Below, in pieces: positions 2,659-33,322 of a DNA stretch of 64,000 bases. The notes below the pieces were generated by a model. The model ran no database searches, had not been told where the DNA came from, and saw only the letters and a program-made list of their open reading frames with translations. The first letter of the stretch is position 1. Each line of letters starts with the position of its first letter. Location: IMG/VR virus record IMGVR_UViG_3300049988_000263; one strand, written 5' to 3'. Both the position numbers and the translations under genes were made by a program. Source of the stretch: a virus.

Positions 2659-2988
2659 ATGGAAAACACGCTGGAATGGACCGAATCGGTTCCGCGCAAC
2701 AAAGCCGAGACTAAGGCGTTCTCCCGCCCAATCGTTACTTTGACCCAACAGGTGATTCGGTTCAAGCTCGTGCTTACCCCGGAGCGCTTCAAACGCCATC
2801 AACAGGCAATGCAACAGGTTCTGGGACGCTCCTACGCGGAGAACCTAAAAATTACGAAACCCTGCGTACGGGATAATCGCCATACCTACGGAGTCACCGC
2901 TTTGATTCTGTCCAGCGCGGTGCCATTATACGAGCGTCTGACAGGGTTCAAACTGATCCAAGATGAAATCGAAACCCGTGATTCGTGA
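2659..2988 (+). CDS. Hypothetical protein
   Basis: SD GGAGA upstream; 109 aa. Confidence 0.6.
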   Translation: MENTLEWTESVPRNKAETKAFSRPIVTLTQQVIRFKLVLTPERFKRHQQAMQQVLGRSYAENLKITKPCVRDNRHTYGVTALILSSAVPLYERLTGFKLIQDEIETRDS

Positions 2989-3436
2989 GCGATCTCTTAT
3001 CGATCTCCCTCAGGAGTTCGGGTTCGACGGCCTCAAGCTTCTCAAGCAGCCAAGGCCGAACGCTCAATGGTGGGCCAAGGCGGACGAGCAGGTCCGAGCC
3101 CTCTGCATCGACGAGCAAGCAGTCCTCCTTGGAAGCGGGCTGGTCGCCAAAATGGATTCCGCGCAGGGCTGGATCAGCGCAAGCAGCATCGACGTGCTGA
3201 CCCAGGAAGAATACCAAACCCTCCTGAATCGACTGCCTCACACAAAGAGTGAATCCCTTTTCTGCGAAAACGTAGAAACCATTTACTTTACCACGATACA
3301 ATCATCCCAAACGGTTGTCGGGATTCTCTCGTACATGTATGGTGATCTATCTCGGGCCAAGGTCTATGCAAGCAGCAATGCCGGATCGACCAAAGTGGCC
3401 AAAGCTATCGCGCAAATACCACGTTTTTCCTTCTGA
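2963..3436 (+). CDS. Hypothetical protein
   Basis: 157 aa ORF in an operon-like run. Confidence 0.55.
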   Translation: MKSKPVIRERSLIDLPQEFGFDGLKLLKQPRPNAQWWAKADEQVRALCIDEQAVLLGSGLVAKMDSAQGWISASSIDVLTQEEYQTLLNRLPHTKSESLFCENVETIYFTTIQSSQTVVGILSYMYGDLSRAKVYASSNAGSTKVAKAIAQIPRFSF

Positions 3437-3447
3437 ATTGGATCATC

Positions 3448-4116
3448 ATGCTGACAATCGCCTTCGCCGACATTCATGGACGGCGGGACCTTCTCGAAAA
3501 GATGCTCAGCACGATCTCCGCCTACGTGGGAACGCGTGAGCACCAAATCATCGCGCTCGGCGACTATGTGGATCGCGGCCCCGACTCCAAGGGGGTACTC
3601 GACCTCCTCATGACCCGCCCAGATATCATCAAGCTCCGGGGTAACCACGAGGGCATGATGCTGGCCGCCCAACAAGGGCGCTTCTCCGAGGTCCGGCACT
3701 TCGTCGATAATGGCGGCGGCGCCACCTGCAAGAGCTTCGGCGTGGTTGCTCCTCATACGATCCCAGAAGAGTACTTCGACTGGATCAGAGAGAACACCAA
3801 GCTGTATCACGAGGACGCCCGCCGGGTGTACGTCCACGCGGGCGTGGGTTGGCGTGAGCCCGATATGTCGAAGCAGCCCGAGCAGTGGCTCCTGTGGATT
3901 CGGGACGAATTCCTCCTCCGCACCGAGCCGTTCTTCAAATACATCGTCCACGGGCATACCCCGAGCCACAGCCGCAAGCCGCACATCGATCAACCCGAGG
4001 TGCTGTCCAATCGGTGCAATCTCGACACGGGCGCATACTTCACAGGCGTCCTCACCGCAGCGGTGTTCGATGACTCCCAGGATATGCCGCTGGAATTGCT
4101 CACCGTTACGCTCTGA
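3448..4116 (+). CDS. Metallophosphoesterase (PPP/lambda NinI-like Ser/Thr phosphatase family)
   Basis: Motifs ADIHG, LGDYVDRG, LRGNHE, VHAG, VHGHTP, NLDTGA. Confidence 0.92.
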   Translation: MLTIAFADIHGRRDLLEKMLSTISAYVGTREHQIIALGDYVDRGPDSKGVLDLLMTRPDIIKLRGNHEGMMLAAQQGRFSEVRHFVDNGGGATCKSFGVVAPHTIPEEYFDWIRENTKLYHEDARRVYVHAGVGWREPDMSKQPEQWLLWIRDEFLLRTEPFFKYIVHGHTPSHSRKPHIDQPEVLSNRCNLDTGAYFTGVLTAAVFDDSQDMPLELLTVTL

Positions 4117-4181: not shown

Positions 4182-5108
4182 GTGGTAATCAACATCGAAA
4201 GACTGCTGAGCGCCAGCCGGACCACCCACGCGAAACTCGCCCAGGAAACCCACTGCTACTGGTGCGAGGAACTGTTCAACGACGAACACGTCTATGGGTC
4301 GAACCCGACCATGGATCACGTCATTCCGCTGGCCGATCTCGGACCCCGTACCGCCGCGTTCAATCTCGTCCGAGCCTGCGGGTTCTGTAATGGACTGCGC
4401 GGGCACGCCCACGTGTACGAATGGGAAGTCGTCGTACATGACTTCGTCAAACCATACCGGCGCGATCTCCCCGGTATGGCCCAGGCTCTGGCCCAGGCAG
4501 AAGGCTTCCGACGATACGCGGTGATCGTGAAAAGCATCGCCGAACGCCAAGCCATCGAACAAGTCGAAGAAGTCTCGATCCGCCGTTGGTCAGTCGATGA
4601 CGCCGCCTCAGAATTCAACGTCTCGCTCAAACGGCTCCCGAACGATTACGGGATCAACTGGTTCGAGTTCCTAAAAAGCATGATCCATACGGTCAAGGTG
4701 GATCAGATGAGCGCCGCCACCTCTCCGGTCTGGACCAACGCGGGCCTCGACCTGAAGATCAGCCGCCATGCCCGCCATGGAGCGCTGCTGGACGGCGATC
4801 TCGCCATGGTCACCCCAACGGAATGGAGAATCCTGAAGACGTTCAAAGACGCTCCAGAAGCCGTCCGCTTCCGAACAGCGGTCGGTGATGGGAATGTCTA
4901 CATGAACCTGCTCAAACTCGGCCGAGATCGAATGGGTATCCTTCTGCATCGGCCTAACCGGACCAAACAGGAGGCGAAGAACCTCTTCCTCTACGGAACG
5001 AGCGGAGCCGCCGCCCTGCGAATCCACGCGTACGCAACCCAAGAAATCATCCATCCCCTGTTGATGGAGCAAAAAGAGGTTGACACGCGTTTAGGGGTTC
5101 CTGCATAA
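4182..5108 (+). CDS. HNH nuclease-domain protein
   Basis: CYWC...MDHVIPL...NLVRACGFCNGLRG; GTG start after AGGAG. Confidence 0.75.
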   Translation: MVINIERLLSASRTTHAKLAQETHCYWCEELFNDEHVYGSNPTMDHVIPLADLGPRTAAFNLVRACGFCNGLRGHAHVYEWEVVVHDFVKPYRRDLPGMAQALAQAEGFRRYAVIVKSIAERQAIEQVEEVSIRRWSVDDAASEFNVSLKRLPNDYGINWFEFLKSMIHTVKVDQMSAATSPVWTNAGLDLKISRHARHGALLDGDLAMVTPTEWRILKTFKDAPEAVRFRTAVGDGNVYMNLLKLGRDRMGILLHRPNRTKQEAKNLFLYGTSGAAALRIHAYATQEIIHPLLMEQKEVDTRLGVPA

Positions 5109-5111
5109 ATA
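5080..5111 (+). promoter_or_regulatory. Promoter of the Ser/Gln leader
   Basis: TTGACA (5080) and CATAAATA (5104). Confidence 0.7.
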
Positions 5112-5116
5112 AAATC

Positions 5117-5212
5117 ATGATCGTCCTGAGTTCACAGCAGCAGTCCCAACAGTCGTCGTCCTCATCGAGGGCGCGGGGTTCTGTGCTGGGCGTGGAAGAG
5201 ATTGCTTTGTAA
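5117..5212 (+). CDS. Attenuator leader peptide, Ser/Gln-rich (MIVLSSQQQSQQSSSSSRARGSVLGVEEIAL)
   Basis: 9 Ser and 5 Gln codons in 31 aa; followed by a terminator; upstream of Ser/Gln tRNAs. Confidence 0.8.
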   Translation: MIVLSSQQQSQQSSSSSRARGSVLGVEEIAL

Positions 5213-5239
5213 GCGAATCCCAACCACGTTTAGGTTCAG

Positions 5240-5269
5240 ACCCCGGTGCGAAAGCAGCCGGGGTTTTTT
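5240..5269 (+). terminator. Attenuator terminator 1
   Basis: ACCCCGG-TGC-GAAA-GCA-G-CCGGGGT-TTTTT; the 5' arm is also complementary to 5174-5183. Confidence 0.85.
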
Positions 5270-14842: not shown

Positions 14843-14921
14843 ATAGGTTTGATGACCTACGCGATCCACCAACGACAAACGGCCTGAAGACTTCGTCCCC
14901 TTGGACGAGGTCTGTTTCTGT

Positions 14922-23833: not shown

Positions 23834-23864
23834 TTGACACCTCGGTTAAGGTCTGAGATAAATA
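23834..23864 (+). promoter_or_regulatory. Promoter of the His leader
   Basis: TTGACA-N17-GATAAATA. Confidence 0.75.
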
Positions 23865-23869
23865 AAGTC

Positions 23870-23920
23870 ATGAACACGCATTCGCATCATCATGTCTCGA
23901 AGGGGTCACACCCGTCGTAA
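23870..23920 (+). CDS. Attenuator leader peptide, His-rich (MNTHSHHHVSKGSHPS)
   Basis: 5 His in 16 aa, three in tandem; terminator and tRNA-His follow directly. Confidence 0.85.
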   Translation: MNTHSHHHVSKGSHPS

Positions 23921-23951
23921 ACGCCGCAAGGCGTGATGCGAATCTGTGTGC

Positions 23952-23982
23952 AACCCCGGTAAGCTATGCTTCCGGGGTTTTT
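23952..23982 (+). terminator. Attenuator terminator 2
   Basis: AACCCCGG-T-AAGC-TAT-GCTT-CCGGGGTT-TTT; 23946-23957 can pair instead with 23902-23911. Confidence 0.85.
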
Positions 23983-24003
23983 CTTTGGTCTTTGGACCAA
24001 TAT

Positions 24004-24079
24004 GGTGGCCGTAGTTCAGTGGTAGAACGTCGCCCTGTGACGGCGAATGTCGCCGGTTCGAATCCGGTCGGCCACCCCA
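24004..24079 (+). tRNA. tRNA-His(GUG) with G-1:C73
   Basis: Cloverleaf, loop CTGTGAC, encoded G-1, C73 and CCA. Confidence 0.95.
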
Positions 24080-24098
24080 AAGTTTTCCGAGGATTCCC

Positions 24099-24650
24099 AT
24101 GAGAATTTCGACCGAGCAGGCGCATGCGTTGTTCGACTGCTTCGAAGACTCTGGGCTTCTCATCGATCCGGACGGGTCCTGGCGCAAGAACTTCCACATG
24201 GAGGTCTCTGTGCTCGGGCATAAGCGCTGGAGCCAAGGCCCGTGGACGCTGATGAACGAGTGGGGCAAGCTGAAGCCTCCTCGGCTGTCGATGGCACCGC
24301 TCGGCGCGTTGTCCACGCCGGAACGCGAGATCGCCGAGGCCGACCGGCTGGAGCGGGTCAACGCGGAGATCGCCCGGATCATGTCGAACGAGCCCGTGCC
24401 GGACCCGGACTTCGCCAAGAGCTTCCCCCGGATCACCCAGGCCGAGATGGAAGCGATGGACGAGGCCCAATGGGAAGCGTTCTTCGACAAAGTCGATGAG
24501 ACCGGCCCCTACATCATCACGAGCCCTCACCGCAAAGACGTGGTGATACTCTCGATCAAGCAATTCGCACGTCTGACAGGAGAAAAACTATGCTGCGAGG
24601 AACTCGAATCATCGACGGAGCCCAGGCCCGACTCTTCACCGACACCATAG
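24099..24650 (+). CDS. Hypothetical protein, possible C-terminal Phd/YefM-like domain
   Basis: FFDKVDETGPYIITSPHRKDVVILSIKQFARL. Confidence 0.55.
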   Translation: MRISTEQAHALFDCFEDSGLLIDPDGSWRKNFHMEVSVLGHKRWSQGPWTLMNEWGKLKPPRLSMAPLGALSTPEREIAEADRLERVNAEIARIMSNEPVPDPDFAKSFPRITQAEMEAMDEAQWEAFFDKVDETGPYIITSPHRKDVVILSIKQFARLTGEKLCCEELESSTEPRPDSSPTP

Positions 24651-25199
24651 AGACGATCCGGAGGTGTCTTCATCGAGGCTGAGTTCGAGGAAATCATCGT
24701 CCCCTCGATTTGGGAGGCGGAGACTTTTCTGGACAAGGTCGGCGACGAAAATCGCCGGATGATGTGGACGTTTCAGGACAAGGGCGAGCGTAACGTCTGC
24801 CTGATCCCGGAGGTTACCGGACTGTTGCAGGAGACGTGGCGGGAGGATTGGTCGAAGCGCTCCAAAACCCGCAACGTCTTCTACGTCCAGCGCTGCTACC
24901 GGTACGAGCGCCCCCAGGCGGGTCGATACCGGGAGTTCACCCAGCTTGGTATTGAGATGCTGGGGAGCCAGGACAGCACCAGGGCAAAGGCGCTCCTACG
25001 GGATTGCCTTGACCGGTTCGACGTGGAATATTCGTTCAACGAATCTGCCAAGCGCGGCCTCTCCTACTACGTGGAGGAGGGGTTCGAGGCGAGCGTGGCC
25101 AAGCTCGGCGCGCAGAAGCAGATCGCGGGTGGAGGGGCCTACGCCGAAGGTGTAGGCTGGGCCATTGGAATCGATCGATTGGTCCTGGCGAGGCAGTAA
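24590..25199 (+). CDS. hisS: Minimal histidyl-tRNA synthetase-like catalytic core with a +1 frame break near 24662
   Basis: AGGAG SD; MLRGTRII...ETIRR then, in the +1 frame, VFIEAEFEEIIVPSIWE; motif 2 YRYERPQAGRYREFTQLGIE; motif 3 GWAIGIDRL; no anticodon-binding domain. Confidence 0.8.
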
Positions 25200-25753
25200 T
25201 GGCTAAGATTGACAGCCACACCGATTTAGATGAGCTTCGGCGGCGTCAGAAGGGTGATCGCGATGCTGAGAGAAATCAGGAGGCCGAGGCGATCTACAGG
25301 AAAGACCTGGGAAACCTCGCCCTTCCGATCCTGAGTATTTTTTCAATTCTCTTCTTCATCATTGATTTTAAGGAGATTCCGTCTTCATCGGGTATCGGAC
25401 TGCTGTTGCTCGCCTCGTGTATCACGTACATTATAGGGTTTGTGCTGGGCACGGCGATCACCATAGGGGCCGTCTGCTTTATCGTCTTGAAGAATCGTTG
25501 GCGCCGACGCCAGGATGATCGAATCCTTAATCTCCATGAAGATGAGCGTGAACATCTGGTCCACTATGCGTACGGTGGAGATCGTCCTCTGGTCTGCCGG
25601 TACATCGTCTTGCGGGACGAGGTGCTGGATTGGGCGAAACAATCCGGAGTCAAGATGGCCGTGCTCACAACGTATCGGAAACAAGGGGACATCCCACTGG
25701 TTTGGTTCAGAAATCCCGAACACGCTGTGGCATTCAAGATGCGTTGGTATTAG
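25199..25753 (+). CDS. TM segments fused to an FKxRW-family domain
   Basis: Two hydrophobic stretches; ends FRNPEHAVAFKMRWY. Confidence 0.75.
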   Translation: MAKIDSHTDLDELRRRQKGDRDAERNQEAEAIYRKDLGNLALPILSIFSILFFIIDFKEIPSSSGIGLLLLASCITYIIGFVLGTAITIGAVCFIVLKNRWRRRQDDRILNLHEDEREHLVHYAYGGDRPLVCRYIVLRDEVLDWAKQSGVKMAVLTTYRKQGDIPLVWFRNPEHAVAFKMRWY

Positions 25754-25762
25754 ATAGAGTTT

Positions 25763-25837
25763 GGGGGTGTAGCTAAGTGGTAAAGCCGGTCGCTCATAAC
25801 GGCCTCATCGCGTGTTCGATTCACGCCACCCCTACCA
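25763..25837 (+). tRNA. tRNA(CAU): Met or Ile2
   Basis: Cloverleaf, loop CTCATAA, ACCA end. Confidence 0.9.
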
Positions 25838-33157: not shown

Positions 33158-33189
33158 TTGACACGCGTTTTGCACTCCCGGTATAAATA
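33158..33189 (+). promoter_or_regulatory. Promoter of the Met/Cys/Pro/Tyr/Phe leader
   Basis: TTGACA-N18-TATAAATA; shares TTGACACGCGTTT with the promoter at 5080. Confidence 0.75.
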
Positions 33190-33194
33190 AAATC

Positions 33195-33263
33195 ATGAAC
33201 ACGATGTGCCGCCCAATGCCGTATTTTCCCACCAAGGGGGCTCAGCCCACCGTGGAGCGGTAA
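33195..33263 (+). CDS. Attenuator leader peptide MNTMCRPMPYFPTKGAQPTVER
   Basis: Same promoter-leader-terminator layout as 5117 and 23870. Confidence 0.75.
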   Translation: MNTMCRPMPYFPTKGAQPTVER

Positions 33264-33292
33264 CACGCGCATATCCATAGGTGAGGTTTCGA

Positions 33293-33322
33293 GCCCCGGT
33301 CGCGAAAGCAGCCGGGGTTTTT
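33293..33322 (+). terminator. Attenuator terminator 3
   Basis: GCCCCGGTCGCGAAAGCAGCCGGGGTTTTT, nearly identical to terminator 1; GAGCCCC (33291-33297) pairs with GGGGCTC (33237-33243). Confidence 0.85.

Follow-up and report, generated by a model that had tools for sequence, protein, structure and literature searches.

In the 64,000-nucleotide (nt) stretch of viral DNA filed in IMG/VR as IMGVR_UViG_3300049988_000263, hereafter the window, a tRNA-His gene and a small gene for a protein resembling histidyl-tRNA synthetase (mini-HisRS) lie between positions 23,834 and 25,837. Comparison of its reading frames shows a +1 frameshift, at a CUU codon followed by a His codon, to be obligatory for the predicted full-length mini-HisRS, and the tRNA-His gene is preceded by a His-rich leader with the in silico hallmarks of a his-type attenuator. 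We consider it probable, though well short of certain, that the two together make up a self-contained His-decoding module in which two serial gates would both read the supply of charged tRNA-His, and we infer from sequence that each gate responds to histidine. The wider proposition stands, in our judgment, at slightly better than an even chance: that mini-HisRS embodies a natural sensor of charged tRNA working by +1 frameshifting at a "hungry" codon, that its product is free of His, that its cassette arose at or moved to at least three positions, that it is stacked on an attenuator controlling the cognate tRNA gene, and that it is the first aminoacyl-tRNA-synthetase-type gene to be autoregulated in the manner of release factor 2.

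The frameshift site in the mini-HisRS gene

The mini-HisRS gene is split between two reading frames. Its first 27 codons lie in the 0 frame and encode a conserved HisRS N terminus, MLRGTR..., that is conserved across all relatives; the body of the protein lies in the +1 frame, which has no start codon before position 24759. The split involves the following elements, in which SD denotes a Shine-Dalgarno sequence.

24590..24682, + strand: 0-frame start of mini-HisRS, with SD AGGAGA at 24578-83 and ATG at 24590, ending at TGA 24680-82
24659..24682, + strand: +1 frameshift cassette CGG-AGG-TGT-CTT-CAT-CGA-GGC-TGA, with GGAGG at 24660-64, then 3 nt, CTT at 24668-70, and CAT at 24671-73
24672..25199, + strand: +1-frame body of mini-HisRS; the +1 frame opens at 24651, past TAG 24648-50

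The 0-frame stop in the cassette, TGA, falls 2 codons past the His codon CAT. Homologues of mini-HisRS number about 2,000, and conservation of this arrangement was assessed in 41 IMG/VR loci and 80 metagenome loci. A frame classification blind to the motif found 79 loci that require a +1 shift, and a second script recovered 81 shift sites in 66 unique contexts. The site always reads (C/G)TT-CA(T/C), with a 0-frame stop 0 to 12 codons on (81 loci); in the unique contexts the stop is immediate in 27, 1 to 5 codons away in 37, and 10 to 12 codons away in 2. The P-site codon, always followed by C, is CTT in 52 contexts and GTT in 14, and the A-site codon is CAT in 54 and CAC in 12. Given that CTT makes up 14% of Leu codons and GTT 18% of Val codons elsewhere in these genes, finding one or the other at the site in all 79 unique genes has a chance probability of about 10^-76. 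As a bare string the cassette motif is not rare in the window (2 matches versus 1.2 expected), and its weight comes from position and conservation.

Most contexts have an SD-like element (GGAGG, GGGGG, GGGAG, or, more weakly, GGAGC) that is separated from the P site by 3 nt; a few, such as the loci designated L021 and L022, have none. At L013 and L006, a +1-frame TAG stands directly before TTC and the 0-frame stop comes at once or two codons after CAY (CAT or CAC), so that the shift is pinned to those two codons, the only two by which the frames overlap there. Downstream of the shift site, a 6-bp pairing in the window is not retained in L001, and the idea of a conserved RNA structure there, pursued by eye, was dropped.

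The cassette is found at three positions in the protein. Site A, 80 to 82 codons before motif 2, is that of most loci, the window included; site B lies about 8 codons earlier (L026, L028, L030, L105, L111, and L112); and site C falls within the conserved VCL|IPE motif (L027 and L089). The shift is present in all of L001 to L003 and is lacking in approximately 24 relatives, mostly more distant ones. Among these unshifted relatives is P0003, at 79% identity, to which the product read with one 4-base step at CTT-C aligns with 0 gaps. The site is also present in a cultured phage with a finished genome, Sinorhizobium phage Phosso (PV764938; L005), whose annotated histidyl-tRNA synthetase coding sequence (2932-3573) has been assigned a false start, an ATG of the +1 frame; the true one lies 51 nt before it, in the 0 frame and behind AAGGAGG. 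Contigs from independent runs that span the site, one of them about 2% diverged, contain no indel.

Read through the shift, the fused product is 202 amino acids (aa) long, contains no His at all, and is shown by profile, motif, and structural comparison to be a HisRS catalytic core without the insertion and anticodon-binding domains. It matches Pfam tRNA-synt_His, and in a profile search it aligns with residues 28-156 and 227-316 only of the T. thermophilus HisRS. Its match to hisS TIGR00442 begins at residue 2 and scores 143 bits versus a cutoff of 286.75; identity as HisZ was rejected, at 58-68 bits versus cutoffs of 271-384 and weaker than the hisS match. An AlphaFold (AF2) model has an overall predicted local distance difference test score (pLDDT) of 89.8 and places the junction between L27 and I28 within a confident helix (residues 10-29), and Foldseek comparison with bacterial HisRS gave TMq values of 0.84-0.89. 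The motif 2 loop, PExT, RGLSYY, and the motif 3 Arg are all kept, and where HisRS motif 2 has a conserved His (FHQ), the product reads FTQ. We infer that the 202-aa product may be enzymatically active.

The leader upstream of tRNA-His

An earlier note on this DNA, made from its letters alone, had proposed that a his-type attenuator controls a tRNA-His and mini-HisRS operon. The leader, the antiterminator pairing and its overlap with the terminator, the 22-nt spacing, and the tRNA-His were all found where the note had placed them, and its gene order, an open reading frame (ORF) and then a HisRS-like gene downstream of tRNA-His, stands as well, except that the HisRS-like gene is not a single ORF but two frames. 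That split was absent from the note, as was the helix formed over the His codons (regions 1 and 2). The leader and the gene it precedes comprise the following, where MFE denotes minimum free energy.

23834..23862, + strand: sigma-70-like promoter read from the sequence, with TTGACA at 23834-39, a 17-nt spacer, and GATAAA at 23857-62
23870..23920, + strand: leader ORF of 16 codons plus a stop at 23918-20, predicted peptide MNTHSHHHVSKGSHPS
23874..23949, + strand: region 1 (23874-88, His codons) paired with region 2 (23935-49) in the MFE fold, enclosing a small hairpin at 23921-34
23902..23957, + strand: antiterminator, in which GGGGTCACAC at 23902-11 pairs with GTGTG-CA-ACCCC (23946-50 and 23953-57)
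23954..23986, + strand: intrinsic terminator recognized from sequence and fold, with a stem at 23954-77 and a U-tract at 23978-86 (TTTTTCTTT)
24004..24079, + strand: tRNA-His (GUG) at 24005-79, with G-1 encoded at 24004 (ARAGORN; Rfam, 70.9 bits)

Five of the 16 codons of the leader ORF specify His (CAT at 23879, 23885, 23888, and 23891 and CAC at 23909), three of them in tandem (23885-93), a content unique among the short ORFs of the window. The leader is probably transcribed as a leaderless or almost leaderless mRNA, because the -10 element ends only 7 nt upstream of the ATG at 23870 and no SD precedes the leader ORF. The architecture TTGACA, N18-19, ATAAATAAA(A/G)TC, ATG has 3 matches in the window versus 0 expected and is kept in relatives L128, L131, L129, L001, L133, and L132. 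A simple promoter and terminator scan overlooked both the leader promoter and its terminator, its rule requiring T at -10 position 6 and permitting no bulge, and Rfam at the gathering threshold returned tRNAs only.

Folding of the 139-nt leader gave -59.8 kcal/mol (z = -5.6; 0 of 200 shuffles as stable), and the MFE structure consists of the long 1:2 helix and the terminator. The terminator stem is G+C-rich, with 10 bp, one bulge, and a 3-nt loop, and is followed by T5CT3; through the ACCCC overlap, the antiterminator ties up the four bases with which the terminator 5' arm begins. The tRNA-His gene encodes G-1, C73, and CCA, with G-1 22 nt past the T5 run. Between terminator and tRNA lies a small hairpin, GGTC-TTTG-GACC (23987-23999), retained with compensatory changes in L128 and L131, which may be a processing signal for tRNA-His.

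The effect of ribosome position was modeled by folding growing (cotranscriptional prefix) transcripts with the approximately 26 nt covered by a ribosome masked. When His codons 6-8 occupy the A site, the antiterminator appears once 23958 has been transcribed (-29.9 kcal/mol) and lasts until the final three terminator bases emerge. With the ribosome at the stop codon, or absent, helix 1:2 forms, the terminator 5' arm is left free, and the antiterminator does not appear. The same contrast between stalled and stop-codon ribosomes was obtained for L128, L131, L129, and L029 and, more weakly, for L133 and L132, and the alternative antiterminator pairing also exists in L001.

Relatives were retrieved by means of mini-HisRS, and their identities refer to the fetched protein compared with the body of the window's mini-HisRS. 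A His-containing leader and terminator precede tRNA-His in 9 of 9 relatives whose mini-HisRS is at least 75% identical, including those listed here.

L128 (95% mini-HisRS identity): leader MNTHSHHHHVSKGSHPS; downstream tRNA His (Met-CAU further on)
L131 (92%): leader MNTHSHHHHHVSKGSHPS; downstream tRNA His
L129 (84%): leader MNAIHHIHHHTRGASSLS; downstream tRNA His
L135 (81%): leader MFTMCHMPFHYPSHGGVSHL; downstream tRNAs His, Tyr, Phe, Pro, Met, and Thr
L133 (79%): leader of H-Q-H-S-H-H type; downstream tRNAs His and His
L132 (79%): leader with three dispersed His; downstream tRNA His
L001 (77%): leader of H-Q-H-S-H-H type; downstream tRNA His
L134 (76%): two tandem leaders rich in H, M, P, I, and C; downstream tRNAs His, Ile, Pro, Met, Pro, and Cys

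The leaders of the relatives hold 4 to 7 His. Across the window and its relatives the tandem run comprises 3, 4, or 5 His codons, the differences being in-frame insertions of whole codons. Strain variants in independent leaf and silage metagenome contigs likewise carry CAT or CACCAC inserted after 23884, and whole His codons are the only indels in the leader ORF of these contigs. The leaders of L135 (1991-2120) and L134 (1583-1880) are enriched by precisely those amino acids that the additional downstream tRNAs carry. Covariation was found in the upper stem of the terminator in L128 and L131 and in the antiterminator helix among three window paralogues and in L001, L129, and L029; across the three window units, the antiterminator extension differs yet stays complementary (TCTG:CAGA, CTC:GAG, and CACAC:GUGUG). 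In independent leader designs, the antiterminator arm lies inside the ORF, directly 3' of the stall site. One such design is that of L029, an unrelated AT-rich 180-kb phage with an independent HHH leader and terminator (2700-2890) directly upstream of an unshifted mini-HisRS, where the 3' end of the leader pairs with the terminator.

The leader thus presents the features by which a his-type attenuator is recognized in silico: a short ORF enriched in His, a terminator before the genes to be regulated, and a mutually exclusive antiterminator whose formation depends on the ribosome. These features are conserved or covarying, and they support the reading of the leader as a his-type leader-peptide attenuator. 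The earlier note's proposal to that effect is strengthened by the 9 of 9 relatives, the growth of the His run by whole codons, and the ribosome-dependent masked folds.

The two paralogous leader units in the window (5080-5269 and 33158-33322) share the promoter-ATG architecture and a CCCCGG/CCGGGG terminator. In one unit, four tRNA-Ser and two tRNA-Gln genes follow a leader with a Ser/Gln run, and the leader of the other, M-C-R-P-M-P-Y-F-P, precedes tRNAs Tyr, Pro, Phe, Met, Cys, and Pro. At 14853-14921, an 11-codon ORF, MTYAIHQRQTA, two of whose codons are CAA, precedes a hairpin, a T-rich run, and tRNA-Gln(UUG), and may be a fourth, minimal attenuator. The L135 and L134 leaders blend His with other residues (H, M, F, P, Y, T, C, and I) that track the tRNA genes behind them, and L134 has two leader-terminator units in tandem. 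Scans of the collection for the promoter-ATG and region 1/2 motifs returned chance matches only (L044, L045, and L126), besides L001's own record. The phage and close strains are present in leaf and silage metagenomes of several studies.

Histidine as the proposed signal and the alternatives

The case for histidine rests on what the site admits and on what the protein avoids. All 66 unique contexts, whichever of the three positions they represent, have CAY as the A-site codon. In the same contexts CUU-U, the slip of prfB, which would place Tyr in the A site, is never seen. The residue at the shift position is variable in unshifted relatives (I, R, A, L, and G) and is only Ile or Thr in shifted genes, and the Ile and Thr codons found there are those that read as CAY in the 0 frame. 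Apart from the one at the site, His codons number 7 across all 79 shifted genes, or 0.09 per gene (205 codons), against a His content that averages 2.6% in the ORFs of the window. The productive reading route thus requires no His-tRNA, the sole His codon sitting on the abortive route, which is the design expected for synthesis when His-tRNA(His) is scarce. The earlier note had suggested a rescue module for His decoding, induced when His-tRNA runs low; the synthetase gene's own frameshift gate at a His codon and its His-free product add to the support for that idea.

We propose that the module operates as follows. At the first gate, the 16-codon His-rich ORF would be translated while RNA polymerase transcribes the leader. 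A ribosome stalled on the tandem His codons would melt helix 1:2 and free GGGGUCACAC to pair with the terminator 5' arm, permitting read-through into tRNA-His, mini-HisRS, and beyond; when His-tRNA is plentiful, the ribosome would reach the stop codon and cover GGGGUCACAC, and the terminator would form. The second gate would be set by the single His codon of the window's mini-HisRS mRNA, located in the A site of GGAGG-NNN-CUU-CAU. With ample His-tRNA, CAU would be read and translation would end 0 to 5 codons on (0 to 12 across loci), yielding a dead-end peptide of about 30 aa. With an empty A site, the peptidyl-tRNA-Leu would slip from CUU to UUC, aided by the SD-like element 3 nt upstream, and the slipped ribosome would go on to make the full 202-aa, His-free synthetase core. 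In nature, scarcity of charged tRNA-His might be brought on by amino-acid starvation, host shut-off, or a tRNA-targeting defence.

Several observations weigh against this proposal. The C after NTT may have been selected for re-pairing (UUC) instead of for a His codon, and shifting at an A-site sense codon could proceed at a constant rate, free of regulation. The SD-like element overlaps conserved Arg/Gly codons and is partly confounded with coding. With regard to catalysis, the window's clade has GGGAY where HisRS has GGGRY. As for the attenuator, the full-length MFE structure contains the terminator in every masked state, so that the switch must be kinetic and antitermination rests on kinetics, and in L133, L132, and the window's Ser/Gln leader a ribosome at the stop codon leaves the antiterminator arm unmasked. 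Several relatives have the frameshift without a leader before tRNA-His, among them Phosso, where a plain promoter precedes tRNA-His; it follows that the gates can be separated. All sequencing runs that match the phage are DNA and none is RNA.

The most substantial competing account of the +1 shift, that it is programmed but constitutive, fixing a low synthetase yield or a set ratio of short to long product, with the His codon a by-product of a C inserted between Leu/Val and Ile/Thr codons, is in our view unlikely, if deserving of serious attention. Many programmed frameshifts are constitutive, those of phage tail chaperones for example; all three site positions fall on Leu/Val-Ile/Thr dipeptides; and UUC would be the best re-pairing for a GAG anticodon. 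A by-product is hard to reconcile, however, with CAY in every unique context at three independent positions, with the absence of CUU-U, which is functional in prfB and would give Tyr, or with the variability of the equivalent residue in unshifted relatives; it is equally at odds with a product that avoids His almost wholly and with a gene that adjoins tRNA-His and, in the window's clade, follows a His leader. Far less credible is a split gene, in which an N-terminal peptide of 28 to 30 aa and a 175-aa body would be made apart, the body by SD-directed initiation at AUU, AUC, or AUA 7 nt past GGAGG or by reinitiation at AUUGA. GGAGG is indeed well spaced as an SD for the first +1 codon, which overlaps the 0-frame stop in 27 contexts, but in 12 of 66 contexts that codon is ACU or ACG, which are not start codons in bacteria, and some sites (L021 and L022) have no SD-like element. 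Initiation would also leave the invariant NTT-C unexplained, the N-terminal part is a conserved HisRS helix that is continuous through the junction in the model, and site C (L027 and L089) falls in the middle of the catalytic domain.

That the frameshift is an assembly error or the mark of a decaying gene is an explanation we regard as effectively refuted, with next to no probability remaining to it. Gene callers and the Phosso annotation do give a truncated gene or a false start, but the same site recurs in 81 loci from many studies, one of them a finished isolate genome, both halves are conserved as protein, the motif is conserved at three positions, and independent runs are without indel variants. 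With respect to the leader, we give little credence to a mere terminator or small RNA behind a promoter, with a His-rich ORF that is fortuitous or senses general translation capacity. Such an element would fit with a terminator in every full-length MFE structure, with a putatively translated ORF that lacks an SD, and with Rfam matches that are weak and of both small-RNA and His_leader type. It fits poorly with an ORF that stays in frame while its His run expands by whole codons, with His codons in 9 of 9 relatives and a leader composition that tracks the downstream tRNAs, and with the recurrence, in independent designs, of an antiterminator arm within the ORF immediately 3' of the stall site.

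Gene neighborhood, known systems, and significance

The genes that follow the leader and flank the mini-HisRS gene are as follows.

24099..24650, + strand: ORF of 183 aa with a weak Phd/YefM-like match, kept in L128 and L131; L129 has a different ORF in its place
25199..25753, + strand: ORF of 184 aa, predicted membrane protein with the C-terminal FK-M-R-W motif of the window's large paralogue family
25763..25837, + strand: tRNA with a CAU anticodon, of Met or Ile2 type, which L128 also has downstream

The 183-aa ORF shares its frame with the HisRS body, from which it is parted only by TAG 24648-50, and overlaps the true HisRS start by 60 nt. Downstream, the ATG of the 184-aa ORF overlaps the HisRS stop (TAATG, 25197-25201), which suggests translational coupling; the frameshift may therefore also gate the membrane-protein gene. 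Co-transcription of tRNA-His and mini-HisRS is plausible because no promoter-like or terminator-like site was found on the + strand between tRNA-His and tRNA-Met, in a simple scan that overlooked the leader's own elements. PHROGs had no family for mini-HisRS or for either flanking ORF, and a Blastn search of isolate phages matched only tRNA-His genes and the Phosso HisRS.

Tandem regulatory His codons are the sensor of the enterobacterial his leader (hisL). The phage leader resembles hisL, trpL, pheL, and pheM in having a short ORF with regulatory codons, a helix 1:2 over those codons, and an antiterminator opposed to a terminator, with ribosome position deciding between them; like that of the trp attenuator, its switch must work kinetically. 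It resembles pheM-pheST in that the regulated products include a synthetase and not a biosynthetic enzyme. It differs from hisL in having 3 to 5 tandem His codons instead of 7, in a leader mRNA that is probably leaderless and without an SD, and in its location in a phage genome. Its first target, moreover, would be the very tRNA by which the sensor codons are read, closing the loop on the tRNA itself. In E. coli, the tRNA-Phe genes reportedly carry leaders that resemble attenuators. Membership in Rfam His_leader RF00514 was rejected (13 bits, E = 6.3, versus a cutoff of 49), and on present sequence comparisons the window leader is best described as an analogue of the enterobacterial His_leader and not as a member of that family.

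The frameshift site has its closest counterpart in prfB (AGG-GGG-UAU-CUU-UGA-C), with which it shares an SD-like element exactly 3 nt before a CUU P site, an obligatory +1 slip, a 0 frame that ends at once or soon, and A-site decoding that depends on the gene's own product. A test for the prfB type found the frame change, the shift-prone P-site codon, and the SD-like stimulator 3 nt upstream but no UGA in the A site; with a His sense codon (CAU or CAC) in place of the stop, the site is a variant of prfB-type frameshifting and not a member of it. Further differences are that the slip is to UUC and not UUU, that the phage family also uses a GUU P site, that the cassette occurs at three places in the gene family, and that the phage product would act indirectly, by charging tRNA-His. 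Slippage of tRNA-Leu by +1 on CUU during slow decoding of a sense codon is also common to Ty1 (CUU-AGG-C) and to hungry-codon shifting in E. coli. In Ty1, however, the slowness comes from a constitutively rare tRNA and the Gag:Pol ratio is fixed, and the E. coli shifts were induced artificially, whereas the phage codon matches the encoded enzyme.

Compared with bacterial HisRS (TIGR00442; PDB 1adj and 1kmm), the phage product conserves class II motifs 1 to 3, PExT, RGLxYY (HisA), and the motif 3 Arg, but it lacks the insertion domain of about 70 aa and the whole anticodon-binding domain. The frameshifting papers PMC5009743 and PMC3711429 mention no synthetase or His codon of the phage kind, and searching the literature for phage and jumbo-phage HisRS, HisRS frameshifting, hungry-codon synthetases, and tRNA-gene attenuators turned up nothing relevant. 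A 2016 review of recoding considered the natural use of hungry-codon frameshifting unclear (PMC5009743).

Whether hungry-codon frameshifting has a natural regulatory use has been an open question since the 1980s, and the mini-HisRS family offers a directly testable case. The material for such tests is accessible, since the cassette is small and portable and Phosso is cultured on Sinorhizobium meliloti. About 80 database entries for mini-HisRS, the Phosso annotation included, have wrong starts or truncated products. Few natural synthetase-like catalytic cores are as small as the 202-aa His-free HisRS core, which is relevant to minimal and orthogonal aminoacylation systems; an engineered catalytic-domain fragment of E. 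coli HisRS reportedly exists. If the proposed second gate operates as we envisage, the logic of prfB would apply beyond stop codons, to sense codons, and beyond release factors, to tRNA charging, and giant phages would appear to regulate the translation genes that they carry by decoding feedback at two levels.

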